Shown here: in pieces, positions 19,048 through 38,840 of the stretch | How the letters are laid out: every line of letters starts with the position of its first letter | Numbering within the stretch: position 1 is the stretch's first letter | Source: an uncultured Chloroflexia bacterium | GTDB lineage: Bacteria; Chloroflexota; Limnocylindria; Limnocylindrales; CSP1-4 | NCBI GenBank assembly: GCA_963752475.1 | Contig: CAVVYR010000007.1 | Span: forward strand, 352,001-416,000 | Direction: 5' to 3' | Length of the DNA stretch: 64,000 nt | Position numbers and translations under genes: made by a program | Notes under the pieces: generated by a model | What the model saw: the letters and a program-made list of their open reading frames with translations, nothing else | What the model was told of the DNA's origin: nothing | The model's database searches: none

Positions 19048-20609
19048 CCGACACGCCCCGACCACGAGCGCTGCTTTCGGTCTCCGACAAGACCGGCCTC
19101 GTCGAGCTGGCCCGCGGACTGGCCGAGCGCGGCTTCGCGCTGGTGTCCACCGGCGGTACCGCGCGCACCATCCGCGATGCCGGCGTGGCGGTCACCGATG
19201 TGGCCGAGGTCACCGGCGCGCCGGAGATGCTCGACGGGCGCGTCAAGACGCTGCACCCGCGCATCCACGGCGGGGTGCTGGCCAACCTCAACGACCCCTC
19301 GCACCGTGAGCAGCTGGCCGATCAGGGCATCGAGCCGTTCTCGGTCGTGGTCGTGAACCTCTACCAGTTCGAGCAGGCCGCGGCCGCGGGGAACCTGTCG
19401 GATGACGAGCTCATCGAGGAGATCGACATCGGCGGACCTACGCTGGTGCGCGCGGGTGCCAAGAACCACGCCAACGTGGCCATCGTCACCGACCCGGCCG
19501 ACTACGACGCGATCCTCGCCGAGATCGACGAGCACGGGCAGGTCCCGCTACGTACGCGGCAGCTGCTCGCACTGAAGGCCTACCGACGGACCGCGGCCTA
19601 CGACGCAGCCATCGTCTCGGAGCTGGCGACGCGCTGGACGCCCGAGGACGCGACCCCCGAGGTCGTACCGCTGGCGCTCAAGCGATCGCTGGAGCTGCGC
19701 TATGGCGAGAATCCACATCAGCAGGCTGCGCTCTACTCGGTCGTCGGTGCCGATCCCGCGGTCGGGCCCTTCGTGGCCGGGGCAGAGCCGCTGCAGGGCA
19801 AGCCGCTGAGCTACAACAATCTGCTCGATGCCTCGGCTGCGGCGGCGATGGCTCGCGACCTCGTTGGCCAGGCGGTCGTCATCGTCAAGCACGGCAACCC
19901 CTGTGGCGCGGCCGAGGCCGACGACCTCCTGACCGCCTGGGACCGAGCGCTCGAAGCCGATCCGGTCAGCGCCTTCGGCGGCGTGGTCGGTGTCCGCGGC
20001 ATCGTCGACGAGACCCTCGCGGAACGCCTGACGAGCCTGTTCCTCGAGGTCGTCGTGGCCGAGGGCTTCGACGCTGGCGCTCGCAAGGTGCTCGCCGCCA
20101 AGCCCGACCTGCGGCTGCTCGAGGATCCCACCATCGCGCAGCCTACGACCGTGGCCCTCGAGGCTCGCGCGGCCGGTGGCGGCGTGCTGCTCATGACCTC
20201 GGACGTCGAGCCCGATGATGCGTCGACCTGGCGCACGGTCACCAAGCGAAAACCCAGCGAGTCCGAGATGGCCGACCTGGCCTTCGGCTGGCGCATCGCC
20301 CGGCACGTGAAGTCCAATGCCATCGTGCTCGCTCGTGGCGGCGCCATCGTCGGCGTCGGTGCCGGTCAGATGAATCGCGTCCAGAGCGCCCGGCTCGCGG
20401 TGGAGCAGGCAGGAGAGAAAGCGCGCGGCGCCGTCTGTGCCAGCGACGCCTTCTTCCCGTTCCCCGATGGTGTCGAGACCTGTCTCGCGGCGGGCGTCAC
20501 CGCGGTGGTGGAGCCCGGCGGTGCACGCAAGGATGACGACGTCATCGCCGCCGTCGACGCCGCCGGCGCCGCCATGGTCTTCACCGGCCGACGCCACTTC
20601 AAGCACTAG
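19044..20609 (+). CDS. purH: Bifunctional AICAR transformylase/IMP cyclohydrolase
   Basis: ATG 19044 overlaps purB stop; ALLSVSDKTG, GRVKTLHP, LRYGENPHQ, ASDAFFPF, RHFKH. Confidence 0.97.
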   Translation: MTDTPRPRALLSVSDKTGLVELARGLAERGFALVSTGGTARTIRDAGVAVTDVAEVTGAPEMLDGRVKTLHPRIHGGVLANLNDPSHREQLADQGIEPFSVVVVNLYQFEQAAAAGNLSDDELIEEIDIGGPTLVRAGAKNHANVAIVTDPADYDAILAEIDEHGQVPLRTRQLLALKAYRRTAAYDAAIVSELATRWTPEDATPEVVPLALKRSLELRYGENPHQQAALYSVVGADPAVGPFVAGAEPLQGKPLSYNNLLDASAAAAMARDLVGQAVVIVKHGNPCGAAEADDLLTAWDRALEADPVSAFGGVVGVRGIVDETLAERLTSLFLEVVVAEGFDAGARKVLAAKPDLRLLEDPTIAQPTTVALEARAAGGGVLLMTSDVEPDDASTWRTVTKRKPSESEMADLAFGWRIARHVKSNAIVLARGGAIVGVGAGQMNRVQSARLAVEQAGEKARGAVCASDAFFPFPDGVETCLAAGVTAVVEPGGARKDDDVIAAVDAAGAAMVFTGRRHFKH

Positions 20610-20645
20610 GCCGGGCCGCTAGGCCCAGCCATGCCATCCCACGCT

Positions 20646-20771
20646 GGCTGAACTCGACCACTCGACGCGCCGACTGCATGATTCCAGCTCCGTCGAGACT
20701 CAGGTTGACGATCCGAGCCTCGCCACGGCTGAGATGCGACAGCCCGCCGGCCGTAGCGGTCGAGTTCAGCC
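20646..20771. repeat. Intergenic inverted repeat / long hairpin
   Basis: GGCTGAACTCGACC (20646-20659) and GGTCGAGTTCAGCC (20758-20771) are a perfect 14-bp pair; inner GTCG/CGAC and CTCAG/CTGAG stems. Confidence 0.7.
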
Positions 20772-20878
20772 CCGGCCGGATGATCCACCTGCCCATGGCC
20801 ATGCACCAGCCGGACATAGAAGAACACCGGCCGGAGGCACCGCGACGGTGTCGCCGACCGGCGTCCTGGGGATCCGAA

Positions 20879-21052
20879 CTAGCGCTTGGCTTCCTTGGCG
20901 CGATTGCGCTGCTGGGCCGCGCGGTCGACGTCCTTGCTGCGCACGCGGGCCACGTCGCTGGCCAGCGTGGGGTTGATCATCATGTGGCCTTCGACGTCAT
21001 CGTCGTCGGCCGGGCGGTTCTGAGGGCTCTCCTTGCCCTTGTTCTCAGTCAT
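20879..21052 (-). CDS. 57-aa peptide with DDDDVEGH motif
   Basis: GGAG RBS, ATG 21052, GC-rich third positions; MTENKGKESPQNRPADDDDVEGHMMINPTLASDVARVRSKDVDRAAQQRNRAKEAKR; hairpin downstream at about 20827-20861. Confidence 0.7.
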   Translation of the reverse strand: MTENKGKESPQNRPADDDDVEGHMMINPTLASDVARVRSKDVDRAAQQRNRAKEAKR

Positions 21053-21240
21053 GTTTGTCGCTCCATCTCTTGACCGGTTCGGCGACTTGGACGCTGTCGT
21101 CGAAGCGTGACTGTAGCGTGCCCGTCGAGGCCCGGCCACACCCTCGGACTCGCGACACTGCGCTTGTCAAATGGCCGACACCCGGCATCCGACGTCGACT
21201 CGGCTTGACGTGGCGGATGTCGCCCCGCCATGGTTGCGAC

Positions 21241-21932
21241 GTGGACCAGCAGTTGATCATCACCAGCCTGCGTGACTCGTACCTCTTCGAGCGTGCCGAC
21301 GATGACGCTCTCACGGCCATCGCGCGCCACATGCGGCGGCGCCGCTTCCGGCGCAACGAGACCATCATGCATCAGGGTGATCCCGGCGACGCCCTTCACG
21401 TCGTGAGCTCGGGCGCGGTCAAGATCGTGCTGCCCAGCCTCGAGGGTGAGGAGGCCATCATCGCCACCCTGCGCAGCGGTGACTTCTTCGGCGAGCTGGC
21501 GCTGCTCGACGGGGCTCCGCGCTCGGCCACGGCCGTGGCCTTGGAAACGACCGAGACGCTGACGCTCCCGCGTGAGGCCTTCCTCGAGATGCTCGATCGC
21601 GACAAGTCTCTGCGGGAGTCGTTGCTGTCCGGCCTCGCGCGAGAGATCCGGCGCGTCACCGGACACGTGGAGGAGCTCCACTTCCTCGACCTCGCCGGAC
21701 GGCTGGCCAGCCGCCTGGCGCGGCTGGCGCGTGAGGCCGAGCCCGAGGCCAACGAGGTCCGCCTCGACTGGCCCTATACGCAGTCGGACCTGGCCTCGAT
21801 GATCGGCGGTACCCGGCAGTCCGTTAACAAGCTGCTGTCCGACCTCGTCGACTCGCGACCTCGTGATCATCGAGAAGGACACGCTCATCATCCCCGACGT
21901 CGCAGGCACTGGAGCTCGAGGCCGAGCGGTGA
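21241..21932 (+). CDS. Crp/Fnr family cNMP-binding transcriptional regulator (two apparent +1 frameshifts near the 3' end)
   Basis: HQGDPGD, FFGELALLDGAPRSATA pocket, HTH TQSDLASMIGGTRQSVNK; removing one base near 21853 and one near 21903 restores DRDLVIIEKDTLIIPDVEALELEAER-stop overlapping the next GTG. Confidence 0.88.
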
Positions 21933-22714
21933 CCGAGGCGACCGACGCCGCCCTGCAGGTCCTCCTCCGCGCCGCCCGCGAGACGGCCACCGCGCGGCGC
22001 ATCGGCGGTGACACCGAGACTGCGTTGCTGCAGTCGGTGGTGGATGCGGCCGCGACCATCTTCGATGCCGAAGCGTCGTCGATCGCGCTCTTCGAACCCG
22101 ATCCTGACCGGCTCGTCTTCCGCGTCGCGGGCGGCGAACAGGGCGACGGCGTCGTCGGCATCTCGGTCGCGCCGACGCACGGCATCGTGGGCTACGTCTT
22201 CTCGACCGGCGAGCCCATCGCGCTCACCGACGTCGGCTCGGACCCGCGCTTCGACAAGGGCACGGCAGAGAAGACCGGCTACATGCCGCGCAGCATCGCC
22301 GCCGTGCCGCTCATCGATGCCGGAGCCACGGTCGGCGTGTTGCAGGTGCTCGACAAGCACTCCGAGGAGTCGTTCTCACTGCGCGACATGGACCTGCTGG
22401 GTGTCTTCGCCCGGCAGGCAGCGGCAGCCATCGAAGCCGCGCGCGTGGGCCGTGACTCCGAGCGGCTGCTGCGCAACGCGCTGGTGGCCATCGGTGGTGA
22501 GGCGCTCGACACGGAGGCGCTGGATGCGCTCATGGCCGCTGCGGCCGAGGAGCTCGACCGTGACGACGAGGCACCGTTCTGGCGGCTGGTGGACCAGGTG
22601 GCGCAGCTGCGCGACACCAACGACGTCGATCTCGAGTTGGTGGAAGAGATCCTCGAGGTCGTGTCCCGGCATCGCTCGCACCGCCTCGGTCGCTACGGTC
22701 GCCGGCCCCGGTGA
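21929..22714 (+). CDS. Stand-alone GAF domain protein
   Basis: AEASSIALF, GIVGYVFSTGEP, DVGSDPRF, RSIAAVPL, VGVLQVLDK, FSLRDMDLL; helical acidic C-terminus with no output domain. Confidence 0.88.
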   Translation: MTEATDAALQVLLRAARETATARRIGGDTETALLQSVVDAAATIFDAEASSIALFEPDPDRLVFRVAGGEQGDGVVGISVAPTHGIVGYVFSTGEPIALTDVGSDPRFDKGTAEKTGYMPRSIAAVPLIDAGATVGVLQVLDKHSEESFSLRDMDLLGVFARQAAAAIEAARVGRDSERLLRNALVAIGGEALDTEALDALMAAAAEELDRDDEAPFWRLVDQVAQLRDTNDVDLELVEEILEVVSRHRSHRLGRYGRRPR

Positions 22715-23538
22715 GCGAGGCCTCGACGCTACGGCCGGCCTGGTCTGAGCCGTTCGTCGGCGAGGCCGTGGCCGAGCTGGCGCGAGCAGCGCGCCTCGAC
22801 CGCATCGACCGCGAGTGGGCGTTCGAGGGCGCGACCGGCAAGGGTGTGACGGTGGCCATCATCGACAGCGGCATCGAGGCCGATCACCCGGCGGTCTCGG
22901 GCCGCGTGCGCCGACAGGTGGCGGTCGAGCTGCAGGACGGCGACCCGGTCGTGGTCGATGACGAGTGCGGCGATCTCTTCGGCCACGGCACCGCCTGTGG
23001 CGGGCTCATCACGGACCTCGCGCCCGACGTCGAGCTGGTCTCGGTGCGTGTCCTCGGCTCCGACCTGCGGGGCAGGGGAGCGGCGTTCCTCGGGGGGCTC
23101 GAGTGGGCCATCGAGCATGAGGTGGATGTGGTCAACCTCTCGCTCTCCTCCAAGAGCGAGGTCCTCTTCGCCGACTTCCATGAGGTCGTCGACCGGGCCT
23201 ACTTCGCCGGAGTGACGCTCGTGAGCGCGGCCAACAACGCACCCGGTGCCTCGTACCCCTCGCTCTTCTCGTCGGTCGTCTCGGTCGCGGCTCACGAGGA
23301 GCCCGACCGCTGGCGCTGGTACTACAACCCGCGTCCGCCCGTGGAGTTCGGGGCCTGGGGCGTGAACGTGCCCATCGCCTGGAAGGACGGCGGCTCGTCG
23401 GTGGCCACGGGCAACTCCTTCGCGGCACCGCAGATCGCCGCGCTCGCGGCCCTGCTGCGCTCGAAGCACCCGGGCCTCACCCCCTTCGAGGTCAAGGCCG
23501 TCCTCGCCGCCACAGCAGACCTGTCAGCACCCGATTGA
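22711..23538 (+). CDS. Minimal S8 (subtilisin-like) serine peptidase, no signal peptide
   Basis: Triad motifs VAIIDSG, GHGTACG, GNSFAAP; oxyanion region SAANN; 275 aa; GTGA overlap with GAF gene. Confidence 0.9.
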   Translation: MSEASTLRPAWSEPFVGEAVAELARAARLDRIDREWAFEGATGKGVTVAIIDSGIEADHPAVSGRVRRQVAVELQDGDPVVVDDECGDLFGHGTACGGLITDLAPDVELVSVRVLGSDLRGRGAAFLGGLEWAIEHEVDVVNLSLSSKSEVLFADFHEVVDRAYFAGVTLVSAANNAPGASYPSLFSSVVSVAAHEEPDRWRWYYNPRPPVEFGAWGVNVPIAWKDGGSSVATGNSFAAPQIAALAALLRSKHPGLTPFEVKAVLAATADLSAPD

Positions 23539-23617
23539 CCCAGCCGTTGTCGGCTGTCTGACAGTCCTCGCGGGCGTCTCCGCCTACCTTGATGGCACGC
23601 AGCGCGAGGTCATGGAC

Positions 23618-23827
23618 ATGGGCGACATGCTTCAGCACCCGGAGTTCTACACCCAGGAGATCGAGCGGCACCAGCTCGAGTCCCGACGATGGGCCGAGGC
23701 GGGCATGCTGGGCCGGCTTGCCAGCAGCGTCCGCGAGCAGTCGCAGGAGCAACCGCGGCGCTCCGGCTTCATCGCCCTGGCCACGCCGGTGGCGCTGGTG
23801 CTGGGCATGCTCGCGATCATCATCTAG
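23618..23827 (+). CDS. Small protein, cassette copy 1 (C-terminal TM helix)
   Basis: MGDMLQHPEFY...RRWAE...GFIALATPVALVLGMLAIII; GAGGT RBS; paralog at 28611. Confidence 0.7.
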   Translation: MGDMLQHPEFYTQEIERHQLESRRWAEAGMLGRLASSVREQSQEQPRRSGFIALATPVALVLGMLAIII

Positions 23828-23837
23828 GCCCACTCCC

Positions 23838-23874
23838 AGCGGCGGGGTCCTGGACGCAGGCGGATCCCGCCGCT
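23838..23874 (+). terminator. Hairpin after small-protein copy 1
   Basis: AGCGGCGGGGTCC...GGATCCCGCCGCT stem. Confidence 0.6.
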
Positions 23875-23928
23875 TCCCCATGTCCGATAGGCCGCCTGTG
23901 CCTTGGTGCGTCGCGTACCATGCCGCGA

Positions 23929-26900
23929 ATGACGTGCCACGCGTGCGGCCGTGCGCTCCCCCACGACGCCCGCTTCTGTTCCGGCTGCGGAGCGGCGATC
24001 GTGCGTGCCTGTGCCGCCTGCGGGACGGAGCTGGAGGCCGACGCGCGCTTCTGCCGCCGCTGTGGTCAGCCCACCGAGGCGGTGGCCGGCGAACCTGCGG
24101 CGACAGACTCCGCCTCTCGGGAGGCGACTACCCCGGCAGCCTCCGAGGCGCGGGAGACGGCTCGCGAACGCAAGATCGCCACGCTGCTCTTCGCCGACCT
24201 TGTCGGCTTCACCGCCATGAACGAAGCCCACGATCCCGAGCTCGTCTCGTCCGTCGTGTCCGCGACCTTCGAGCGGCTGGCCGAGGAAGTGCGCCGCTAC
24301 GAAGGCACGGTCGAGAAGTTCGCCGGCGACGCCATGCTGGCGGTCTTCGGTGTACCCACCACACACGAGGACGACCCCGAACGAGCGGTCCGAGCGGCCC
24401 TCGAGATGCAGACGGCGCTCTCGACCATGGCACAGACCGCGTCCGGCCCGGAGCTGCGGCTGCGCATCGGGATCGCCACGGGTGAGGTGCTCGCCGACCG
24501 TTCGCGCGCCTCGGCCGAGCGTGACCTCTTCGTCACCGGCGATGCCGTCAACACCGCCTCCCGCCTGCAGACAGCGGCCGAGCCGGGCACCGTCGTGGTC
24601 GGCCCCTCGACCTACGCTGCCACGCGCGAGGCCATCGACTACGAGGAGCTACCGCCGGTCACGCTCAAGGGCAAGGGGCTGCCGGTGGCCATCTGGCGCG
24701 CGGACTCGGTCAAGGCCGGCCGCGGTGGCCGTCGCGGCCGGCTGGGGCTGCAGTCGCCGCTGGTGGGTCGCGACGGGGAGCTGTCGCTGCTGAAGGAGAC
24801 CGTGCGCCGCACCGTAGACGAGGGTCGGCCGCATCTCGTGACCGTCATGGGCAGCGCCGGCGTGGGCAAGAGCCGCATCGCGTGGGAGCTGGAGAAGTAC
24901 CTCGACGGCCTGCCTGACATCTACCACTGGCGCAAGGGCCGTTGCCTGGCCTACTCCGGTCTCAGCTTCGGACCCATCGCGGACGTAGCCAAGGCCGACG
25001 CCCGCATCGCCGACGACGACCCGCCGCCGGTCGCTCGCAAGAAGCTTGTCGGCCGCCTCGCCGAGCTCGGGCCCGTGGCGGACGACGAGGAGGTACGTCG
25101 AGCGCTCGAGGCGGTGCTGGCCATCGGTGACGGGGACGAGCGACCCCGGGACGAGCTCTTCGAGGCCTGGCGCCGCTATCTCGGCGCTGTGGCCGCGGTG
25201 GCACCACTGCTACTGGTCATCGAAGACATCCACTGGGCCGACGAGGGCGCGCTTGCCTTCATCGAGTTCCTGGCCCGCTGGGGTGAAGGCCCTATCGTCA
25301 TCGTCTGCCTCGCACGCCACGAGCTGCTCGAGAAGCGCGGCACCTGGGGAGGGGGTCTGCCCAACGCGTCCGCCATCGTGCTCGAGCCACTCGGCGCCGA
25401 AGCCAGTAGCGCCCTCGTGGGCGGACTGCTGGACGGCGACCTACCCGATGAGCTGGGCGCTCGCCTCGTGGAGCTGGCGGAGGGCAACCCGCTCTTCGTG
25501 GAGGAGATCGTGCGCATGCTCGTGGACCGCGGCGTGCTGCGCTTCTCCGAGGGCCACTGGGAGGTGGCCGGCGCGGTCGATCAGCTGGAGATCCCCGACT
25601 CGGTGCAGGCCGTGCTGGCTGCCCGCCTCGACACCCTGCCGCCGGAGGAGAAGCGGGTGGCGCAGGACGCGGCGGTCGTGGGCCGCATCTTCTGGGACGT
25701 CATCGTGGCCCACCTGTCGGGCAGCGAGCGCCACCCCACACACGAGCTTATCCGCCGCCTGCGCGTCAAGGACCTGGTGGTGCAGCGCAGCCCCTCGTCG
25801 TTGGCCGACGCCGCTGAGTTCGGCTTCCGCCACGTGCTCATCCGCGACGTGGCCTACGACTCGCTGCCCAAGCGCGACCGCTCCCGGCTCCACCGTGACA
25901 TCGCGCTGTGGGCCGAGTCGGAGCTGGCCGATCGCGTCGATGAGTTCAGCGAGCTCATCGCCAGCCACCTCGCAGCCGCGTTGGCCTACGACGAGGAGTT
26001 CACCGAGGATTCGGCCGAGCTGCGCGCCATCCGCGAGACGACCTACGCCGCTGCCAAGCGCGCGGCTCAGCGGGCGCACGCCATGAGCCAGTTCGATGCC
26101 TCGGACCGCTGGTTGCGGCTTGCGCTCGACTTGGGCTGGAAGATCGAAGCCCCCGCCCGGGAGATGGCTGAACTCACGGTCAAGTTTGCCGATGTCGCCT
26201 GGCAGACGGCCGATCCGGCCGAGGCCGAGCAGGCACTGACACGAGCCATCGACGTCTGGCGTCCCGCCATGGGCGACAGCGACGGTGACCGGCAGGTCAT
26301 GGCTAGGCTTCGGGACCTGCGAGGCAACGCACTCTTCGGGCAGGGTAACGTCGAGCCTGCGCGAGAGGAGCTTCGCGATGCCATCGCCGAGCTCGAGCCA
26401 GGGCTGCCGTCGAAGGCACGGGCACTGCTGCTCAATCGCCTCGGCTGGACCTACTGGCGCGCCGGGCCTACCGCGGACGCCATCCCCATCATCGAGCGGG
26501 CGATCTCCGAAGCGGAGGCCAGCGACGCGGATGACGTTCTTCGCTGGGCCAAGCACGATCTGGGGGTGACCCTCGCCATCCTTGGTCGTGAGAACGAGGG
26601 CGTGGCCCTGCTGGAGGAGTCGCTCGAGCTGGCGCGCACTTCCGGCGACCGCGAGTTGCTGCTCCGTTGCTACGTCAACGTGCCCGCGACGCGTGAGGCG
26701 CGCGGTGATCGGCTCGAGCCGCTCGCTGAGATGTCCCTCGAGGGCCTGCAACTGGCCCGACGGTTGGCGGCGAGCCAATACATCACCTGGCTCGGGAGCA
26801 ACCGAGCTGACCATCTCGCGGATCTGGGACGCGTGGCGGAGGCCGTGGAGCATCTGAGCGAGGCTATCGCGCACGCGGAGGCCATCTCCTTCATGCACCT

Positions 26901-27525
26901 CGGTGCCCACCGCTGTGGTCGGGCAGCGTACCGGCTGTTGCTCGGCGATCGGGAAGGTGCAGCCACGGACATCGAGGCCGCAGAGCAAATCGGCATCTCC
27001 TCAGAGGCGCAGGTCGCTTGGGGCTATCCCTTCGTCGTGGCCATGAATGGCTGGGACGAGGACCCTCGGGAGGCGGCTAGCGGGCTGCTCGCGTGGGCCA
27101 CGGAGCACGTCGACGGCCAGGCCAGCACCTACTTGCTCGTGGTCGAGCTCGCCCGCATGGCTCTGCGGCTGGACGATAGGGCGACCCTCGATGCCGCGGC
27201 GCGGTTGACCGAACTGCACACCGAGTTCCGGTCCATCCCGCCGCAGCTGGCCAGGGGCGCCTGGGTCCAGGGGCTGGTGGACGGCGACTCAGGGGCGGTG
27301 GCGAACGCGGCCGCCGAGCTCGAGGGACTTGGCTTGAAGCTCCAGGCATCGGAGGCCTGGGCAGATGCGGCGTTGCTGGCCGCGCGCGCCGGGGTCGAGT
27401 CCGAGGCCGCTTCCCGGGCCACCGAGCTCGTCGACGAGATGGGCATCCGCCCCTGGCTCGGCCCGCTGCCGGAGACGCGCTGGCTGGAGCCGGCGAAAGA
27501 CGAGAGCGGGGCCTCGGTCGTCTAG
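23929..27525 (+). CDS. Double zinc ribbon - class III adenylate/guanylate cyclase - STAND/AAA ATPase - TPR-like protein (paralog 1)
   Basis: 4 x CxxC; FADLVGFT, EKFAGDA, VTGDAVNTASRLQ; Walker A GSAGVGKS, Walker B LVIEDIHWAD, GNPLF; helical C-terminus; start ATG 23929 (alternative 23920). Confidence 0.92.
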   Translation: MTCHACGRALPHDARFCSGCGAAIVRACAACGTELEADARFCRRCGQPTEAVAGEPAATDSASREATTPAASEARETARERKIATLLFADLVGFTAMNEAHDPELVSSVVSATFERLAEEVRRYEGTVEKFAGDAMLAVFGVPTTHEDDPERAVRAALEMQTALSTMAQTASGPELRLRIGIATGEVLADRSRASAERDLFVTGDAVNTASRLQTAAEPGTVVVGPSTYAATREAIDYEELPPVTLKGKGLPVAIWRADSVKAGRGGRRGRLGLQSPLVGRDGELSLLKETVRRTVDEGRPHLVTVMGSAGVGKSRIAWELEKYLDGLPDIYHWRKGRCLAYSGLSFGPIADVAKADARIADDDPPPVARKKLVGRLAELGPVADDEEVRRALEAVLAIGDGDERPRDELFEAWRRYLGAVAAVAPLLLVIEDIHWADEGALAFIEFLARWGEGPIVIVCLARHELLEKRGTWGGGLPNASAIVLEPLGAEASSALVGGLLDGDLPDELGARLVELAEGNPLFVEEIVRMLVDRGVLRFSEGHWEVAGAVDQLEIPDSVQAVLAARLDTLPPEEKRVAQDAAVVGRIFWDVIVAHLSGSERHPTHELIRRLRVKDLVVQRSPSSLADAAEFGFRHVLIRDVAYDSLPKRDRSRLHRDIALWAESELADRVDEFSELIASHLAAALAYDEEFTEDSAELRAIRETTYAAAKRAAQRAHAMSQFDASDRWLRLALDLGWKIEAPAREMAELTVKFADVAWQTADPAEAEQALTRAIDVWRPAMGDSDGDRQVMARLRDLRGNALFGQGNVEPAREELRDAIAELEPGLPSKARALLLNRLGWTYWRAGPTADAIPIIERAISEAEASDADDVLRWAKHDLGVTLAILGRENEGVALLEESLELARTSGDRELLLRCYVNVPATREARGDRLEPLAEMSLEGLQLARRLAASQYITWLGSNRADHLADLGRVAEAVEHLSEAIAHAEAISFMHLGAHRCGRAAYRLLLGDREGAATDIEAAEQIGISSEAQVAWGYPFVVAMNGWDEDPREAASGLLAWATEHVDGQASTYLLVVELARMALRLDDRATLDAAARLTELHTEFRSIPPQLARGAWVQGLVDGDSGAVANAAAELEGLGLKLQASEAWADAALLAARAGVESEAASRATELVDEMGIRPWLGPLPETRWLEPAKDESGASVV

Positions 27526-27545
27526 CCGGGCGCTACTCTCGGAGC

Positions 27546-28538
27546 ATGGCCTCCAACCTCTACTTCGCCGACTGCCACAACGACCTGCTGCTGGGCGTGA
27601 CCTGCCAGCGCGATCTTGGGAACGACGACCTCTTCGGTGACTTCTGGCTGCCGCAGCTGCGCGCCGGGAACGTGCGTCTGGTGGTGCTGCCGGTCTACAC
27701 CGAGGACTGGTTCACCGGCGAGGCCGCTCTTCGACGAGCGCTGACCACGGTCGAGACTGCTCGCCAGATGGCCCAGCGCCATGGCGAGGAGGTGGCTCTG
27801 GTCGCGACCGCCGGCGAGCTCCGAGCCGCCCTCGACAACGGTCGCATCGCGCTCGTCCTGGCCTTCGAGGGTATGGAACCCGTGGGTGCCGACCTCGACC
27901 TCCTCGACACCTTCTGGCACCTCGGCGTGCGCATGGCCTCGCTGACCTGGAACCGCCGCACGCCCTTCGCCGATGGTCTCGGCGAGCGACGCACCGGTGC
28001 GGGCCTGACCAACCTCGGCGAGAAGGCAGTCGAACGCATGGAGCGCCTGGGCATGATCGTCGATGTCAGCCACCTCTCCGACCCTGGCTTCGACGACGTC
28101 GCGAGGGTGGCGACGCGGCCGTTCGTGGCCAGCCACTCGTCCTGCCGCGACGTCTTCGACCACCCCCGCAACCTGCGTGACGACCAGCTGCGCACCATCG
28201 CCGAGTCCGGTGGCTTCGTGGCCATGAACGCGATGAGCGATTTCGTGGGCGAGGGTTCGACGGTCGACACGTTCCTCGATCACGTCGAACACGCGCTGCG
28301 CCTCATCGGCGCTGAGCATGTGGGCCTGGGCCTCGACTTCCTGGCCGACACGGAAGCGCACTCGCTGCCCGCCTCGGCCCAGCCCGAGCCCGGCTTCTTC
28401 ATCGACGGACTGGAACGACCGGCCGACCTGCCAGCCCTCGGTGCGCGGCTCGAGCAGCGCATCGGTCAGGATGCGGCCCGACAGGTCGCGAGCGGCACGT
28501 TGATCGGATCGCTCGAGCGCCTGCTGCCCGCGGACTGA
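27546..28538 (+). CDS. Membrane dipeptidase family (M19)
   Basis: DCHNDL, LAFEG, LTWN, DVSHLS, ASHS, HPRNLRDDQL, HVGLGLDF. Confidence 0.9.
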   Translation: MASNLYFADCHNDLLLGVTCQRDLGNDDLFGDFWLPQLRAGNVRLVVLPVYTEDWFTGEAALRRALTTVETARQMAQRHGEEVALVATAGELRAALDNGRIALVLAFEGMEPVGADLDLLDTFWHLGVRMASLTWNRRTPFADGLGERRTGAGLTNLGEKAVERMERLGMIVDVSHLSDPGFDDVARVATRPFVASHSSCRDVFDHPRNLRDDQLRTIAESGGFVAMNAMSDFVGEGSTVDTFLDHVEHALRLIGAEHVGLGLDFLADTEAHSLPASAQPEPGFFIDGLERPADLPALGARLEQRIGQDAARQVASGTLIGSLERLLPAD

Positions 28539-28610
28539 ACTGTCGCCTGCTTGACAGACATCGCGCGCAGAGCGTCGTACGGTGATGTCACGCAGCGCGA
28601 GGTCAACGTC

Positions 28611-28850
28611 ATGAGTGGAATGCTCCAGCACAACGACGAGTACCGCGAGCGCGCCCAGAGCCGTCAGGCAGAAGCTCGTCGGTGGGCCGAGGTCGATCAT
28701 CTCTCCCGGCTCTCCAAGGCGAATCGTCCCAAGCGGCTCACGCGCCCGCACCACTATCACCACCATCACTCGATGCGTACAAGGTTGCGTGCCCTGCGCA
28801 TGCACCTGCACGCGATGCACTCACCGTTCCACCTGCGACCGCATCACTGA
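28611..28850 (+). CDS. Small protein, cassette copy 2 (His-rich basic C-terminus)
   Basis: MSGMLQHNDEY...RRWAE...HHYHHHHSM...LRPHH; leader nearly identical to copy 1. Confidence 0.7.
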   Translation: MSGMLQHNDEYRERAQSRQAEARRWAEVDHLSRLSKANRPKRLTRPHHYHHHHSMRTRLRALRMHLHAMHSPFHLRPHH

Positions 28851-28889
28851 GCACTGCGCTCCGGTGCGATGCCCTGGGTCCGATCCGCT

Positions 28890-28925
28890 AGCGGCGGGGT
28901 CCTGACGAACCGGACCCCGCCGTTT
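28890..28925 (+). terminator. Hairpin after small-protein copy 2
   Basis: AGCGGCGGGGTCC...GGACCCCGCCGTTT. Confidence 0.6.
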
Positions 28926-28974
28926 CGCGTGCATCAGTCGCCGTGCTCGCGCCTCAGGTAGCATCGGGTCACCC

Positions 28975-30614
28975 ATGACCGACCGACGCCGTTTCTACCT
29001 GACCACCGCCATCGCCTACGCCAACAACAAGCCGGGCCTGCACACCCTCTACGAGGTCGTAGGTGCCGACGTCATCGCCCGCTGGCATCGCATGATCGGC
29101 GACGAGACCCAATTCCTCACCGGCACCGACGAGTACTCGGTGAACATCGCTACCACCGCCGCCGAGCAGGGCCTCTCGCCCAAGGCGTTCGTCGACGGCA
29201 ACGTGGCCCTCTTCCAGGCTGCTGAGGACGCGCTGGGCATCAGCCCCGACCGCTTCATCCGCACGACGGACCCCGACCACACCGACGCCGCACACGAGAT
29301 GATCCGCCGCGCCTATGAGGTCGGAGACATCTACCTCGGCAAGTACGAGGGTTGGTACTGCCCCAACGAGGGCTTTCGCGCCAACAGCGACCTTGTCGAG
29401 GACGAGTCGGGCACGCACTGCCCCAACCACCCCGACGTCGAGCTGCAGTGGCTCAGCGAGAACAACTGGTTCTTCCGGCTCAGCGCCTACCAGGAACGCC
29501 TCGAGCAGTACTACGCCGATCATCCCGACTGGGTCGAGCCCGAATACCGCAAGAACGAGATGCTCGGCTTCATCCGCCAGGGCCTGGAGGACTTCAGCGT
29601 CAGCCGCGAAGGCGCCAGCTGGGGCATCCCGTTCCCGCTCATGCCCGACGGCTCCAGTGCCCAGCGCGACGACGGCACGTGGGATCCCGCGGCCGGCACC
29701 GTCTACGTCTGGTACGACGCGGTCATCAACTACATCACCGGTGCCGGCTTCCCGGGCGATATGGAGATGTTCGAGAAGTGGTGGCCCGTCGACCTGCACG
29801 TCATCGGCAAGGACATCAACCGTTTCCACACCATCTTCTGGCCGGCCATGCTCATGAGCGCCGGCCTGCCGCTGCCGCGCAAGGTCTGGGTCCACGGCTG
29901 GTTGCTGACCCAGGGCGAGCGCATGAGTAAGAGCCGCGGGAACTTCCTCGATCCCAACGACGTCGTAGCGACACTGGGGCGCGACGGCACGCGCTACACC
30001 GTGCTGTCCGAAGTCGCCTTCGACAAGGACAGCGACGTATCGTGGGACTCCTTCGTTCGTCGCTACAACGCCGATCTGGCCAACGACTTCGGCAACCTCC
30101 TCAATCGCTCGCTGTCGATGACCATGCGCTACCGGGGAGGGGAGCGCTCTGCGCCCACCGACGGGCGATCTCGCCGCAACCTGGAGCACCACCTTCGCCA
30201 CCTACGGCGAGAAGCTCGAGGCCTGCCTGCTGCACGAGGCGCTCGAGACGCTCTGGAGCTTCGTCGGTGAGGCCAACAAGTTCGTCGAGGCCGAACAGCC
30301 GTGGACGCTGGCCAAGGCCGCCAAGAACGGCGACACCGAGGCCGATGAGCAGCTGACAGGTGTGCTCGGCGACCTGCTCGAGGCCTGCCGCGTCATCGCC
30401 TTCGCGGCCGCACCCTTCATGCCAGCGGCAGCCGCGCGAGCCGCCTCCCAGCTGGGCGTGGGCTACGACTACGACGACGACGGCAACGGCGGCCCGGCCC
30501 TGCAGGAGCTCGCGTCCTGGGGCGCGCTTGAGCCCGGCGGTAGCATCGGTGCGGCAGAGCCCCTGTTCCCGCGACTCGAGACCGACGAGGCGGAGGGGGA
30601 GGCGCGGGGCGTAG
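28975..30614 (+). CDS. metG: Methionyl-tRNA synthetase (apparent +1 frameshifts near 30164 and 30605)
   Basis: FYLTTAIAYAN, FLTGTDE, YVWYDA, HVIGKDI, RMSKSRGN, DLANDFGNL; anticodon domain ANKFVEAEQPW and LFPRLE continue in the +1 frame. Confidence 0.92.
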
Positions 30615-30625
30615 AGGAGGCTCCC

Positions 30626-30987
30626 ATGGCCATCGGCGAGATCACCCACATCGAGCTCCCCAGCGACGACCCCGAGCGCGCCCAGACCTTCTACTCCGAG
30701 CTGTTCGGCTGGCCCATGCGGCAGGTCGAGGGGATGCCGGACTACACCATGTTCCAGAGCGGGCCGGGCGAATTCGGCGGAGCCATCGGGAAGCGCGGCG
30801 TGAGCGCCCCCGACCGCTGCGCCTCTACGTCGAGGTCGAGTCGCTCGATGTGAGCGTGGCCAAGGTCATGGAGCTCGGTGGCAGCGTCGCCGTCGAGATC
30901 ACCGACGTGCCCGGGCAGGGCCGCTACGCCGCGGTGATCGATACCGAGGGCAACGAGATCGGCCTGTGGGAGGCCGCGCCTGCCTGA
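30626..30987 (+). CDS. VOC family protein (apparent -1 frameshift near 30817)
   Basis: AGGAGG RBS; ITHIELPSDDPERAQTFYSELFGW, then in another frame LYVEVESLD...IDTEGNEIGLWE-stop. Confidence 0.8.
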
Positions 30988-31822
30988 GCTGAACCCGGCC
31001 GGGCTACGCCTGGTCGACTCCCACGCCCATATCCAGACGCAGGCCTTCGAAGAGGACGGCGACGAGGTCCTCGCCGCCGCGATCGCTGCCGGGGTCGAGC
31101 GCATCCTCGTGCCCGGCTTCGACATCCCCACCACCCACCAGGGGCTCGAGTTCGGGCGACGCCACGGTCTCAAGACGACCGTCGGCATCCACCCGCACAT
31201 CGCCTCCACCGTCGACGACGCGATGTGGGAACAGGTGCGCGAGCTGGCGGCACGCTCGACGACGTCGTGGGCATCGGCGAGACCGGCCTCGACTACGACC
31301 GCGGCTTCAGCCCGCGTGAGGACCAGCTGCGCAACCTGCGAGCGGCATATCACGCTGGCCTACGAGACCGGCGAGTCGCTGACCCTGCACTGCCGCTCCA
31401 AGCCCGGTGAGCGTGACGCACAGGACGACCTCATCCGTCTCCTGCGTGATGGTGGCGCGGGCAGCGCTGAGTGGCAAGAACGCTTCGGCGACCGACCGCC
31501 GGGTGTGCTCCACTCGTACAGCGGGCCGGTGGACTACGCGGAGGCGGCGCTGGAGATGGGCTTCCTCATCGCCTTCGGTGGGCTCGTCTTCCGTCGCGGC
31601 GAGGAGCCCAGCGCAGACGTCGCCCGGATCACCCCGCTCGACCGGATCCTGACCGAGACCGACTCGCCCTACCTCAAGCCGAGGAAGGTCAAGGGCAGCC
31701 GCAACCAGCCGCTCAACGTGGCGGTCACGGCCAACTGGCTCTTCGACCTGCGAGACGACGATCGCGACGCGTTCGGTCAGGCTCTCGTCGACAACTTCGA
31801 CCGCTTCGTCGGGGTCGGCTGA
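30980..31822 (+). CDS. tatD: TatD family DNase (two compensating frameshifts near 31250 and 31339; start uncertain)
   Basis: LVDSHAH, VGIHPH, GIGETGLDY (alternate frame), LHCR, LHSYSG, ETDSPYL. Confidence 0.85.
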   Translation: MPELNPAGLRLVDSHAHIQTQAFEEDGDEVLAAAIAAGVERILVPGFDIPTTHQGLEFGRRHGLKTTVGIHPHIASTVDDAMWEQVRELAARSTTSWASARPASTTTAASARVRTSCATCERHITLAYETGESLTLHCRSKPGERDAQDDLIRLLRDGGAGSAEWQERFGDRPPGVLHSYSGPVDYAEAALEMGFLIAFGGLVFRRGEEPSADVARITPLDRILTETDSPYLKPRKVKGSRNQPLNVAVTANWLFDLRDDDRDAFGQALVDNFDRFVGVG

Positions 31823-31832
31823 CCGGATCTCC

Positions 31833-32855
31833 TCAGATACCCGATCCCGGACAGTCGATGTAGATCTCGAGGAAACGGGCATCGCTGCCGTTCACCGCGG
31901 ACTTCCACACCGGCACGCTCGGCTGACTGGGCGAAGCCACGCCCGGATCGGCCTTGATCACATCCGGCATCCCATCGACACGGTCCGCGATCTCGGCAAA
32001 GGCGCTGCCCCCGGCGCCCTCCCAGTAGGTGTCACCCTGGAGGTCGGAGGTGTACCAGGTGTGGCGCCCGGCCGCGGTGTGCATCTCCGCCGAGGCCGGC
32101 TGGCAGTGGTCGGCGTAGGTGACCAGATGGGTCTCCTTGTTCCAGTCGGCGAAGTCCGCAGCCACCTTGGGGTCCCACTTGGTGGGGTACCGGTCCATGA
32201 CGATGGTGTCGCCGACGCTGGGGATACCGTCGAGGTCGGAATCGACGAGCTTGCTGATGAGCACGTCACCGACGCCGAAGGCCTTGTTCCCGTCCAGGTC
32301 GGCGTAGGCCACGATGAGGTCCTTGGGTACTGGCTCCACCGGCACCACCGGCGGCTCGCAGCGGGCCTTTGGACCCGTGCCCACACCCTGGATGCAGCGG
32401 TCGATACCGACCCCGCCGTGGAGGCGGTCGTTGCCGCCCTGGCCGAAGAGCACATCTGGTCCCGGGCCGCCCGCGAGAAGGTCGCCGTGCAGCCCGCCCA
32501 TGAGTCGGTCGACCCCACCGCCGCCGAAGAGGCGGTCGGCACCGGCCTGTCCGGCGATGCGGTCGTGGCCGGCCTGGCCCGCGACGCGGTCGTTGCCCGG
32601 GCCGGCGCAGATGATGTCGTTGCCACCACGGCCGACGATGATGTCGGCCCCGCCCTTGGCCACGATGACGTCACGCTTGGCCGTGCCCTTGAGGACGTCG
32701 GCCTTGTCGGTGCCCACGATGGTGGCTCTGTGGCCCATGCACTTGGGCTTCTTGGCCGCGGCAGCGGGTGCGGCGATGGCGGCGATCGCGAGTGCCGCGG
32801 CCAGGGCCGCACTGACGAGGATGGTGGATGTCCGCTGACCGCTGCGCGCCATCAT
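31833..32855 (-). CDS. Secreted protein with hemolysin-type Ca-binding (GGxGxD) repeats
   Basis: Signal peptide; CMGHRATIVGT..DVL.GT..RDVI; repeated GRGGND, GPGND, GQAGAD, GGGGVD, GGPGPD. Confidence 0.82.
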   Translation of the reverse strand: MMARSGQRTSTILVSAALAAALAIAAIAAPAAAAKKPKCMGHRATIVGTDKADVLKGTAKRDVIVAKGGADIIVGRGGNDIICAGPGNDRVAGQAGHDRIAGQAGADRLFGGGGVDRLMGGLHGDLLAGGPGPDVLFGQGGNDRLHGGVGIDRCIQGVGTGPKARCEPPVVPVEPVPKDLIVAYADLDGNKAFGVGDVLISKLVDSDLDGIPSVGDTIVMDRYPTKWDPKVAADFADWNKETHLVTYADHCQPASAEMHTAAGRHTWYTSDLQGDTYWEGAGGSAFAEIADRVDGMPDVIKADPGVASPSQPSVPVWKSAVNGSDARFLEIYIDCPGSGI

Positions 32856-32987
32856 GAGCGACCCCCTACGTGCCGGATCACCCAGTGCCATCGGGAACGG
32901 CCGGCGCGACCACTCTGGAGGCGATCCTGGCTTCCGATTATGCGCCACGCGGCAAAGGGAGCACCGCTCGACCTCGTTTGACGAGAG

Positions 32988-35171: not shown

Positions 35172-35258
35172 GCCTCGAGTGTATGGCGGATCGCGCCGAT
35201 GCCACGTTGTCGGCGATTCGACAGCCACGCGCGGTGCCGTTCCCGTACGATGCCGTCC

Positions 35259-38200
35259 GTGGATTGCCGGTCCTGTGGCACGGCTCTGACCGCAGGCGCG
35301 CGTTTCTGTGCGTCCTGTGGTGCGCCCGTGTCTGCCGGATGTGGCGGCTGCGGTGCCGAGCTGCCGCAGGGCGCGCGCTTCTGCCCGGCCTGTGGCGCCG
35401 CCGCCGACGAGGTAGCACCACCCTCCGATGAGGTCCGCACGGTGACCATCAGCGGCACTCGCGATCCTGGCCGTGAGCGCAAGCTGGCCACGCTCCTCTT
35501 CGCCGACATCGTCGACTTCACCGCGCTCAACGAGGCACAGGACCCCGAGCTCGTCTCCGGGCTCGTAGGCGCCACCTTCGAGCGCCTCGCACGCGAGGTC
35601 GAACGCTACGAGGGCACCATCGAGAAGTTCGCCGGCGATGCCATCCTCGCGGTCTTCGGCGTGCCCGCCACCCACGAGGACGACCCCGAGCGTGCCGTCC
35701 GAGCCGCGCTCGAGATGCAGTCGGTGGCGCAGACCATGGCCTCGGACGCGCGCGGGGGGCCGGCCCTCAAGCTACGCATCGGCGTCGAGACCGGTGAAGT
35801 CCTCGTCGACCGCGCACGCGCTGCTTCCGAGCGCGACCTGTTCGTCACGGGCGACGCGGTCAACGTGGCGTCCCGGCTACAGGACGTGGCCCAGCCGGGC
35901 ACCGTCGTGGTCGGCCCATCGACGTATGCCGCCACCCGCGAATCGGTCGACTTCGACGAGCTGGAGCCGCAGGAGCTCAAGGGCAAGAAGTGCTCGGTCG
36001 CGGCCTGGCGCGCGGTCTCGGTCAGGTCCGGCCGCGGTGGTCGGCACACGCGCTTGGGCATGGAGTCGCCGATGGTCGGTCGGGCCAGTGAGCTGACGCT
36101 GCTGAAGGAGACCGTGCGCCGGACCATCGAGGATGGCCGACCACATCTCGTGACCGTCATCGGCGGCGCCGGCGTGGGCAAGAGCCGGCTCGCCTGGGAG
36201 CTGGAGAAGTACCTCGATGGCCTGCCCGAGCGCTACGTCTGGCGCAAGGGCCGCTGTGTGGCCTATTCGAGCGCCAGCTTTGGGCCCATCGCCGAGGTCG
36301 CCAAGACCGACGCCCGCATCCTCGATGACGACCCACCGACGGTGGCCCGAGGCAAGCTGGCCACCCGCCTGCGCGAGCTCGACCTCGGTGCCGACGAAGT
36401 TGCGGTGCGCGATGCACTCGAGGCCGTGCTGGCCATCGGCGACGATCGCGAGCGGGCCCGGGAGGTGCTGTTCGAAGCCTGGCGTCGCTACTTCGCCGCC
36501 ATCTCCCGCGTGGCGCCGCTCGTGCTCGTCGTGGAGGACCTGCATTGGGCCGACGAGGGCGTCCTCGGTTTCCTCGACTTCCTCGCTCGCTGGGGTGAGG
36601 GCCCCATGGTCATCCTCGGACTCGCCCGTCACGAGCTGCTCGAATCGCACGCCAGCTGGGGCGGGGGACTGCGCAACGCCTCCACCATCGAGCTCGAACC
36701 ACTTGCTCGTGACGAGGCCTCGGCGCTGATGGAAGGGCTCCTCGATGGAGGTGTGCCGCCGGTGCTGGGCGAGCGCATCACCGCGCTGACCGAAGGCAAT
36801 CCGCTGTTCGCTGAGGAGATGGTGCGAATGCTCGTGGACCGCGGGACGCTGCGCTTCAACGATGGCCGTTGGCAGCTCGCGCGGCCGGTCGATGAGGTCG
36901 AGATCCCGAGCTCCGTGCAGGCCGTGCTGGCCGCCCGGCTCGATGCACTGCCGGAGAACGAGAAGCGGGTGGCGCAGGACGCCGCGGTCATCGGCCGGGT
37001 CTTCTGGGATCAGCTGGTGGCGCACATCGCGCGCGACGACGTCGACAAGACCAGCGAGCGCATCCGCCGCCTCCGCGTCAAGGACCTCGTCGTGCCGCGC
37101 GAGCCGTCGTCGATGACCGGGGCGGCCGAGTTCGGTTTCCGTCACGTGCTCATCCGCGACGTGGCCTACGAGTCGCTGCCCAAACGTGACCGTGCCGCAC
37201 TCCATCGCGAGATCGGCGAGTGGGCCGAGCGCGAGCTGGCAGACCGGCTCGATGAGTTCGCCGAGCTCGTCGCCAGCCACTTCGCCGCGGCCGTGGCCTA
37301 CGAGGAGGAGTTCGACCTCGTGGGTGGACCGCGACTGCAGGGACTTCGAGTCCAGGCCCGAGACGCGGCCATCCGCGCCGCCCGCCGCGCCTGGTCCATG
37401 AGCCAGTCGGGTGAAGCCAGTCGCTGGCTGCGCCTGGCCATGGAGCTGGCCTGGAAGACCGATCTGCCGGCGCGCCAGGTCGCGGCACTGGCGCTCGAAT
37501 ACGACGAGATCGCCTTCATGGTCGGCGGTGAGACCGAACAGGTCACCATCGCGCGGCGCGCGCTCGAGGCCATGGAGGCGCTGCCGGACCTGGCAGCGGA
37601 CGACCGGGACACGATCTCGCTGCTGCGCAACATGAAGGGCGCCTCGCAGTTCCACGCCGGCGATGTCGATGGCTCCAGACAGACGCTGCGGAAGGCGCTC
37701 GAGGCCCTGGGCGAGGGCCCGCCCACGAGCGTGCGGGCGCACCTCAAGGCCACTCTCGGCTGGACCTACTGGCGGGCCGGACCGGTGGATGAGGCCGTGC
37801 CCCTGTTGGAGGAAGCCGTGGCCGAAGCCGAGGCGGTCGACGACGCCCAGACCTTGCGCTGGGCCAGCCACGACTTGGGCGTGGCGCTGGGCATGCTCGG
37901 CGACCACGATGCCGCGGTCACCCGGGTGGAAGAATCGATGCGGCTGGCTCGGGAGGCCGGCGACCTGAACCTCGTCATGCGCTGCTACATCAACCTGCCG
38001 GCGATGTGCTCGGCTCGGGGCGATGACATCCGGCCGTTGGTCGAGATGGCCATCGATGGCATCGGCCACGCCCGTCGAGCTGCGGCCGGCAGCGTCGTCT
38101 GTTGGCTGGCCGGCAATGTCTCCGGCTTCCTGCGGGAGCTGGGCCGTCTCGACGAGGCCCTTGACTACGCCGACGAAGCCGTGGTCACGACCGAGGCCCA

Positions 38201-38840
38201 CGTGCCCGGGAACCTGGCCATGACTCTGTCAGACCGGGCCTCCCTGCATCGCCTTCGTGGCGAGTTGCCAGCGGCGCGCAGGGACGAGTCGCGGGTCGCG
38301 GAGCTCGATCTGGCGGTCGAGCCGCAAGTCAAGGCGCACCATCTCTTCGCCCGCGTCGCGGAACGGTGGGCGAGCGATCCGAAGGGCGCGCTGGGCATGC
38401 TGGCGGACTCCATATCGGCCGAGCCGGATTCGATCGATGAGCACGGCAAGATCGCCCTCTGGTACGCCCGTGGCAGCCTCCGTCTCGGTGATGATGACGG
38501 TGTGGCCTGGGCGGTCTCGATCGCGGAGGCCTTCAGTGACCGGTCCACGTCTAGCCAGCTCGCCCAACGTGACTGGATCGCTGGGCTCTCCGACGGCTCC
38601 AGGGGGCGCACCGTGGAGGCCGCCGCACAGGGACTCGAGGAGTTGGGGCTGCTCACCGCGGCCGCCGATGCGTGGGCAGATGCCGCGCTCCTGGCCGCCA
38701 GGGCCGGCCGCAAGTCGGCCGCGCTGGATCACGCCCTGGCCATCACCGAGCGCATCGGCATGCACCCGTTGCTGGGTCCGTTGCCCGAGACGCGCTGGTT
38801 GGAGCCCGCCGCCGCGACCGCCACCTCGACGCGCGAGTAG
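35259..38840 (+). CDS. Double zinc ribbon - class III cyclase - STAND/AAA ATPase - TPR-like protein (paralog 2)
   Basis: 4 x CxxC; [28 protein letters not shown]; [23 protein letters not shown]; start GTG 35259 (alternative ATG 35250). Confidence 0.92.

Follow-up and report, generated by a model that had tools for sequence, protein, structure and literature searches.

A subtilisin and GAF module with a recurrent D-V-E-G-H-type motif, apparently undescribed, in Chloroflexota and Streptomyces-like bacteria

The cyanobactin proteases PatA and PatG act on the multi-cassette precursor PatE, and the LanP enzymes are S8-type leader peptidases. Class III cyclase, cyclic nucleotide (cNMP)-binding, STAND and protease domains are found in Pycsar, Avs and signal-gated protease immunity, and the canonical Crp-type box is TGTGA-N6-TCACA. 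A short cytoplasmic S8 protease, QhpE, removes the leader from a radical SAM-processed peptide (PMC7876137, in the sections available), and the available part of PMC8341899 states that most class III and IV lanthipeptide clusters have no peptidase gene. The present analysis concerns a 64,000-nucleotide stretch from an uncultured Chloroflexia bacterium (the window; contig CAVVYR010000007.1 of assembly GCA_963752475.1, positions 352,001 to 416,000), and within it a locus that encodes a divergently transcribed small peptide (pepA), a Crp-type regulator (crp), a stand-alone GAF protein, a short S8 protease, a small protein and a zinc-ribbon/cyclase/STAND/TPR protein (cyclase-STAND). A preliminary description of this stretch had proposed a nucleotide-signalling and proteolysis system with a leaning towards immunity.

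Comparison of related loci establishes the gene set, its co-occurrence, a peptide motif and a promoter box with fixed spacing, and suggests a cytoplasmic subtilisin that is specific for the motif, has GAF as its partner and is linked to cyclic-nucleotide genes. This module is apparently undescribed, as a search of the open-access literature, supplements excluded, returned no description of it; single Streptomyces clusters may be described. On the best reading, it would serve unmodified peptides in Chloroflexota and clusters for peptides made by ribosomes and modified after translation (RiPPs) in Streptomyces-like bacteria. We lean slightly towards regarding it as a portable, cyclic-nucleotide-wired peptide-release switch, of which the window would hold the minimal form.

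The S8 protein matches PF00082 with 94 bits, conserves D52, H92, N176 and S236, and is modeled as a subtilisin fold with pLDDT of 85.6 and TM of ~0.7 to subtilisin BPN'. Neither its alignment nor its model exhibits an evident signal peptide or pro-domain. The closest relatives are Limnocylindria-type Chloroflexota records. Because the triad and a set of unusual pocket residues (S146, S181, H195, GNSF) are common to ~130 Chloroflexota or metagenome, 14 Actinomycetota and 47 Streptomyces-like alignments, the S8 proteins of the three groups are assigned by alignment to one subfamily. Against the mycosin model TIGR03921 the score of 118.5 bits falls below the cut-off of 279, and the signal peptide and membrane anchor are absent from the alignment. 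An S8 protein of Gemmatirosa (L057; L and G numbers are our labels for loci and genomes) was dropped on account of its different gene context.

The preliminary description had recognized pepA as a 57-residue peptide with a DDVEGH stretch; the gene is upheld, reads DDDDVEGH, and has 72 database homologues with identities of 65-96%, residues D19, E21, G22, H23 and R44 being invariant over 17 rows. It matches no Pfam or NCBIfam family and not NF045560 (aroma-sacti cluster domain), the ESM Atlas returns only unnamed Chloroflexota clusters, and a pepA hidden Markov model (HMM) found no match in three further genomes. In relatives, tandem-repeat proteins encoded between crp and GAF contain D-D-D-[VTA]-E-G-H followed by a short core 3-8 times, and fusions of repeat protein and pepA also occur, as do membrane-anchored proteins bearing the motif 2-3 times. 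The repeat protein, the membrane-anchored protein and an MFS::cNMP orthologue were not found by tblastn and HMM searches of the window's genome (89% complete). As the repeat, fusion and membrane-anchored proteins are missing from what was found there, the window's locus appears to be a minimal form of the module. The small protein downstream of S8 matches no Pfam or NCBIfam family, and the ESM Atlas returned nothing above 0.81 for it. Homology between the pepA tail and small membrane-tailed proteins was considered and not accepted (best score 8 bits). A side observation concerns proteins of ~200 residues, assigned to no family, in which 1-3 DVEGH motifs are followed by a helix of hydrophobic residues and a tail of low complexity (L008, L010, L019, L023, L030, L032); the same type is found in L036, L041, L046, L048, L051 and L052.

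Of 221 genomes drawn from the class, 94 hold S8, always as a single copy, 53 the repeat peptide and 22 pepA (peptide matches at E <= 1e-6). Either peptide occurs in 59 genomes, all of them S8-positive, and in none of the 127 S8-less genomes; these counts include the unpublished genomes G526, G561 and G651, without which the S8-positive and peptide-positive totals are 91 and 56. Gene distances were taken from 33 lineage loci flanked by 5 kb on either side (53 examined; L044 and one S8-less locus excluded). GAF lies <=1.5 kb from S8 in 33/33 of these, in 39/39 Streptomyces-like loci and in 16/17 of a further locus set. Within 5 kb of S8 in the lineage loci, a Crp gene with a helix-turn-helix (HTH) domain is present in 32, MFS::cNMP in 14 and cyclase-STAND in 5. 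The proposed system implies that peptide, Crp, GAF and S8 recur together in other genomes, and this is strongly borne out.

A plasmid search extended the S8 family to Miltoncostaea and Streptomyces. It is present in 26/401 genomes from G041's phylum (record Gaiellaceae; unpublished G131 and G163 counted) and in 74/201 genomes of the Streptomyces-like family to which G234 belongs; the locus of G338 is near-identical to that of the Streptomyces plasmid. Forty of 82 Streptomyces-like S8 places were examined, 39 of them for gene distances. In 33 of the 39, S8 has both cyclase and STAND genes at a distance of up to 5 kb (cyclase in 35), and HTH-Crp lies that close in none. Genes are joined by RTGA overlaps, from STAND to S8 in 29/34 cases and from S8 to the next gene in 27/40. 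The neighbors include radical SAM, heme-oxygenase-like, SPASM, LanKC, glycosyltransferase, POP and P450 genes, so that clustered RiPP-modifying enzymes are present. The strict motif [DE]-V-x-[GA]-H was found in 31/40 loci, one occurrence looking spurious, versus 6/80 tiles of the window's genome, an imperfect control. As a separate observation, Miltoncostaea locus L056 (NZ_CP064357) carries a seven-fold ETEAH repeat protein, a kinase-annotated cyclase/STAND gene, an ECF sigma gene and S8, together with GAF, an NHLP-like small protein, an MBL hydrolase and MFS::cNMP.

The position of the motif in RiPP precursors lends comparative support to the earlier proposal that S8 acts on the peptide. Several Streptomyces-like precursors read exactly DVEGH. 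The aroma-sacti family (NF045560) is present in 66/201 genomes, 65 of which are S8-positive, and LanKC enzymes beside motif precursors exceed their NCBIfam cut-off of 575 with scores of 592, 648 and 681. In L236 and L237 a VxSLQ leader precedes the motif and a Ser/Cys core follows it (DVEGH|VFSVLSVAC and EVQAH|ISTSSVHIC); in L193, L220-L222, L229 and L234 it precedes a VLDLQ-type leader by 1-3 residues, and in multi-core precursors (L213, L227, L228, L058) it stands ahead of every core. For comparison, class III lanthipeptides have an Sx2Sx2-5C core and an ILELQ leader (PMC8341899, same part). As one motif spans unrelated RiPP classes beside one protease subfamily, it is most simply read as a protease site. 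Cleavage by S8 at the motif is likely, and a cut directly after His, a position that is somewhat favored, would agree with both lanthipeptide layouts.

Two further kinds of motif-bearing genes were noted in the Streptomyces-like loci. Short precursor genes that share the motif and vary in their cores stand in arrays of 3-5 (L205, L214, L218, L235, L237) and are candidate new RiPP families. The BTAD/SARP ATPase regulators (loci L058, L195, L206, L213, L216, L219, L220, L226, L228, L229, L232, L233, L235 and L236) carry EV[TSR]AH 25-40 residues from the C-terminus in 13/25 cases, and 0/14 paralogs of five S8-less genomes do so; this may be one inherited feature. We take the C-terminal segment after the motif to be NB-ARC MHD-like.

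The Crp protein retains the pocket FGE...RSA (G-E...R-S/T type) that the preliminary description had called intact, together with an HTH domain, and its closest solved relatives are GlxR and CRP-Mt (E 2e-34). The recognition helix reads RQSVN, invariant in 17 rows, rather than R-E-x-x-x-R/K. A search for the canonical box gave best matches mostly with 3-4 mismatches, as in controls, and the recurring element was instead TGTC-N8-GACA. In the 300 nucleotides upstream of the genes it is present exactly for 20/20 repeat genes (0.1 expected) and, with <=1 mismatch, for 24/25 pepA genes (3.7 expected), 12/12 membrane-anchored motif genes and 18/18 small-protein genes; all 6 copies examined of the small gene downstream of S8 have it. 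It is absent upstream of the control genes tatD (0/16), groES (0/13), GAF (0/39) and purM (0/7). Boxes upstream of metG (8/30 exact) and MFS (10/16 at 1 mismatch) probably reflect intergenic space shared with divergent peptide genes. Because the helix Glu of CRP contacts the base that differs in the new box, the change from Glu to Gln fits the altered site. Binding of this box by the Crp protein is, on these comparisons, highly probable.

The spacing of box and promoter is regular. A -10-like hexamer lies 43-45 nucleotides past the box in 16/20 repeat genes and 44 or 49 nucleotides past it in 17/23 pepA genes; in the window the distance is 21 nucleotides for either small gene and 22 nucleotides for the second cyclase-STAND. 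Spacing of 21-22 nucleotides is class II CRP geometry, and the boxes of the small genes are inferred to be class II-like. With a matrix trained without the window, the four window sites are among the genome's five best, that between pepA and crp being the best (24.8 bits). The fifth precedes an unlinked gene at C7:102699-102893 of the same genome (L243:1502), and the box is kept in 5/5 copies (orthologues in L244-L247). Its product (64 residues here and 63-65 over the copies, no Pfam family) has a signal-peptide-like N-terminus and an R/K-R-G/S-G-G tail, and is a candidate secreted peptide of the regulon. Several Actinomycetota loci whose Crp likewise reads RQSVN also have the box ahead of DVEG[HQ] peptides. 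It is not universal: at >=14 bits it was not found in L192-L195, L058 or L044, and L056 has one weak unrelated match. Actinomycetota repeat peptides of L185, L186 and L188, with the box upstream, have D-x-E-G-Q in place of the form ending in His. In L123, L124 and L129, box-preceded proteins of 70-190 residues beside GAF-S8 have a helical leader ending in EV[VG]AH; they look aroma-sacti-like by eye, yet do not match NF045560. A second, distant Crp-family gene of the window's genome (C29:227899-227315, 26% identity) lies ~2 kb away from C29:225505, where an exact palindrome is located.

The GAF protein belongs to the PDE/CyaB clade, its closest solved relatives including the GAF domains of CyaB2 and PDE2A/5/10. 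The motif NKFDE marks cNMP-binding GAFs (PMC11977230, in the part available). Structure prediction gave the S8:GAF pair a fold score of 0.59, against 0.00 for the best control. The mark was reached by 116/157 solved and 2/215 mismatched pairs, and among pairs reaching it scores <=0.60 belong to 18 solved pairs and both mismatches. The runs agree in >=75% of contacts with partner pLDDT >=64, and no interface was returned. The prediction lends weak support to a GAF:S8 pair, and physical contact of GAF and S8 is moderately favored. In Streptomyces-like loci GAF is the local cNMP-reader candidate, since Crp is absent within 5 kb and cyclase and GAF are retained.

The cyclase keeps both metal-binding Asp residues, the specificity Lys and the transition-state Asn/Arg pair (D, K, D, N, R), as first described; the 'class IIIb Thr' was misassigned, the Thr seen being the residue beside Gly, with Phe at the true position. 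The window's genome carries five cyclase-STAND copies. That of the module starts 92-101 nucleotides past the small gene, is not operon-coupled, and is 56% identical to the copy 11 kb downstream, whose thioesterase-adjacent position is also used in relatives L001 and L040. No cyclase-STAND follows S8 in the closest relatives with enough flank. This absence and its paralog grouping (below) indicate a lineage-specific paralog, recently placed. The link of the cyclase-STAND family to the S8 module nevertheless looks real, since cyclase-STANDs of several clades adjoin S8 in other loci and the downstream paralog carries the box. As a system member, the cyclase-STAND thus holds for the Streptomyces-like family, with the 33 of 39 loci given above, and is loose in the lineage of the window, where it lies within 5 kb of S8 in 5/33 relatives versus a rough background of 1.6%.

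In the proposed mechanism, a cytoplasmic S8 protease, probably GAF-bound, would recognize [DE]-[VT]-x-[GA]-H, and the cut would free the part behind it, which is pepA's basic tail in the window, a series of short cores in relatives, and RiPP cores or leaders in Streptomyces-like bacteria. The Chloroflexota Crp with its altered helix would switch on the peptide genes through the TGTC-N8-GACA boxes, while cNMP would probably come from the cyclase-STAND-TPR proteins and probably gate the protease through GAF. Gating of S8 by cNMP through GAF is nearly evenly balanced, with doubt slightly ahead. An extended version would close a cytoplasmic peptide loop common to two phyla. In it, cNMP made by the STAND-TPR cyclase on sensing released peptide would turn on GAF/S8 as well as Crp and the precursor genes to give more peptide, and S8 would also clip SARP-type regulators of Streptomyces-like bacteria. 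This loop is speculative and unlikely; if it were true, one protease would time the expression and maturation of many RiPP classes.

Several observations weigh against the proposed switch or parts of it. The co-occurrence counts overstate the association, as relatives are not independent; 35/94 S8-positive genomes have no peptide match, although short, divergent genes may escape detection, and the motif scan was blank in 10/20 Actinomycetota regions, in two of which the box scan later exposed DVEGQ variants. Matrix matches at >=17 bits number 7 genome-wide versus ~16 expected from a Markov control and are not in excess, so the case for the box rests on position and conservation. In the cyclase, the second purine-specificity position is Phe (FVTG) where CyaB has Thr (YTIIG) in a gapless alignment; of 82 cyclase rows, 77 have L/M/R/F/I/V at this position and 5 have T. 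As the product, cAMP, named in the preliminary description, is therefore not established, given also the altered NKFDE of GAF. In a tree of the 82 rows, which includes long branches, the window's cyclase groups with Limnocylindria thioesterase-adjacent paralogs (100/98), apart from the S8-coupled Streptomyces ones. The GAF pocket is non-canonical by alignment: NKFDE keeps K, F and D and changes N to D and E to M, both invariantly, and VDDSTGFRT of the PDE2A pocket helix is replaced by AAERTGYVP. In PDE2 GAF-B, single alanine changes in NKFDE abolish cGMP binding (PMC11977230, same part). These invariant departures speak for a rather unlikely alternative in which S8 cuts the motif without nucleotide gating. 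GAF would then help S8 to fold, inhibit it or serve as a peptide-binding adaptor, with cNMP acting via Crp (transcription) and MFS::cNMP export only. The absence of a visible S8 pro-domain, for which a partner could stand in, and MFS::cNMP in 14/33 Chloroflexota loci agree with it. It sits poorly with the Streptomyces-like loci, where cyclase-STAND, S8 and GAF remain coupled with Crp at 0/39, and with membership of GAF in the PDE/CyaB clade.

Whether the window's cyclase-STAND is part of the switch is a separate matter. It may be a chance neighbor, another cyclase of the genome making cNMP, which is compatible with the rest of the proposed switch and evenly poised. The five genomic copies and the recent origin of this paralog favor chance, as does the lack of an adjacent cyclase-STAND in L001-L005, L015, L029, L040, G014, G005 and G022; the frequency above background in relatives of several clades and the box before its paralog speak against it. 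That this copy is the dedicated cNMP source is doubtful. A different role for the motif, as a docking, inhibitory or metal-binding element through which the peptides regulate or decoy S8 or GAF, is quite improbable. Such a role would suit the motifs inside membrane-anchored proteins and SARP-type regulators, the Cu/Ni binding that E-G-H or G-H ends might provide, and the window's genome itself, which has one single-motif peptide and no clustered RiPP-modifying enzyme among the annotated neighbors of pepA. It would not explain the motif at leader/core junctions and before each repeated core in several RiPP classes, and replacement of His by Gln in some Actinomycetota repeats argues against metal binding. 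Anti-phage signaling, in which an NLR-like STAND senses infection and the resulting cNMP activates a toxic protease, is very improbable. STAND-TPR and class III cyclase domains are known in defense systems, and PADLOC gave matches, at the domain level only, to PycC, PycTIR and a subtilase model. The single S8 copy in all 94 positive genomes, the purH and metG genes that flank the locus in many relatives, the transcription-factor regulon of peptides, the RiPP cluster context and the IteS score of 15 bits against a cut-off of 900 point elsewhere. The immunity framing of the preliminary description is consequently not retained, and a defense role is considered unlikely.

The coordinates are collected in Table 1. 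The gene order in the window is purB-purH, divergent pepA, crp, GAF, S8, small protein, cyclase-STAND, M19 dipeptidase, second small protein and metG, and many relatives likewise have the module flanked by purH and metG. All domains initially assigned to the Crp, GAF, S8 and zinc-ribbon/cyclase/STAND/TPR proteins were recovered by domain matches. The GTGA overlaps reported earlier are located at 21929-21932 (crp-GAF) and 22711-22714 (GAF-S8), the first after repair of a frameshift in crp. The two surplus bases responsible, at 21851 and 21901, are missing from 5/5 aligned relatives and from a near-identical 162-nucleotide contig of sequencing run X1, possibly the source sample, so the frameshift is probably an assembly error. 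The window assembly is indel-prone, as metG (28975-30853) ends early at 431 residues and continues in another frame, and a further surplus base at 20836 is absent from runs X1 and X2. The M19 dipeptidase gene (27546-28538), between cyclase-STAND and the third box, was not found in 55 related loci and is not counted as part of the module. Scans for sigma-70 promoter and terminator consensus (20500-29000) and against Rfam (20000-36000) returned nothing. RNA run X5 holds mostly relatives <90% alike and no expression evidence for the window's strain.

Table 1 Features of the locus (window coordinates).
Feature	Coordinates	Strand	Remarks
pepA (57 aa; putative S8 substrate)	20879..21052	-	acidic leader, D-V-E-G-H, basic helical tail
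Crp-type box, palindromic, TGTC-N8-GACA, pepA/crp intergenic	21165..21180	.	predicted site
crp (Crp/GlxR-like regulator; recognition helix RQSVNK)	21241..21932	+	cNMP_binding and HTH_Crp_2
GAF protein, stand-alone, PDE/CyaB-type, with C-terminal extension	21929..22714	+	NKFDE reads D-K-F-D-M
S8 subtilisin, short	22711..23538	+	Peptidase_S8; D52/H92/S236 triad, N176 oxyanion
Second box	23548..23563	+	-10-like TACCTT 21 nt further on
Small protein (69-71 aa), hydrophobic C-terminal tail	23612..23827	+	without DVEGH motif
Zinc-ribbon / class III cyclase / STAND ATPase / TPR protein	23920..27525 (start 23920 or 23929)	+	DZR/cyclase/AAA_16/TPR
Third box	28541..28556	+	-10-like TACGGT 21 nt further on
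Second small protein, His-rich tail	28611..28850	+	N-terminal half paralogous to 23612-23827 protein
Fourth box	35208..35223	+	directly upstream of second cyclase-STAND paralog
Second cyclase-STAND-TPR paralog	35250..38840	+	56% identical to 23920..27525 gene; thioesterase-adjacent

If the proposed switch is correct, RiPP clusters in about a third of the Streptomyces-like family (74/201) gain a leader-peptidase subfamily with a known recognition motif. Among them are clusters for class III lanthipeptides, for which the question of leader removal is described as only partly answered. The motif would then be a handle for unannotated precursors and for the prediction of mature products. Peptide maturation would also be a case of a process under second-messenger control, which might account for clusters that stay silent and suggest how to activate them, and abundant uncultured soil Chloroflexota would possess a small Crp regulon of peptides.

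Among known systems, the module is likened to QhpE- and PatA-type leader peptidases, and by model scores and gene context falls outside both. The S8 protein matches the QhpE model (NF049966; quinohemoprotein amine dehydrogenase) over nearly its whole length with 107.2 bits, below the cut-off of 165; there is no qhpABCD or qhp operon context, and the module adds a GAF partner, a Crp regulon, a cyclase-STAND and many substrates with one motif. With PatA/PatG and LanP it shares an S8 protease and precursors in which a recognition sequence is repeated before each core; in contrast to PatA/PatG, the score against TIGR03895 is 20.1 bits versus 421, cyanobactin enzymes are lacking, the motif is another one and signaling genes are attached. 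The step served would be the unmet one of class III lanthipeptide leader removal, for which AplP/AlpP and FlaP are described, the candidate here being a clustered S8 protease with a junction motif rather than a Zn aminopeptidase or POP. The aroma-sacti family (NF045560) is present in the Streptomyces-like loci, with sequences that end in EVQAH/DVEGH and a short core, whereas the window's peptide lies outside it; no text tying aroma-sacti to S8-GAF-cyclase was found in the open-access literature searched. Pycsar and other PADLOC systems are matched only by stretches of cyclase, cNMP-binding and S8 domains, not full-length in system order, and the housekeeping genomic context and peptide regulon set the module apart from Pycsar and Avs. 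The cAMP regulons of GlxR and CRP-Mt, the nearest solved relatives of Crp, likewise have a palindromic box with a 16-bp core, whereas here the helix reads RQSVNK instead of RETVNK, the box is TGTC-N8-GACA, and the predicted regulon is a small one of peptides.

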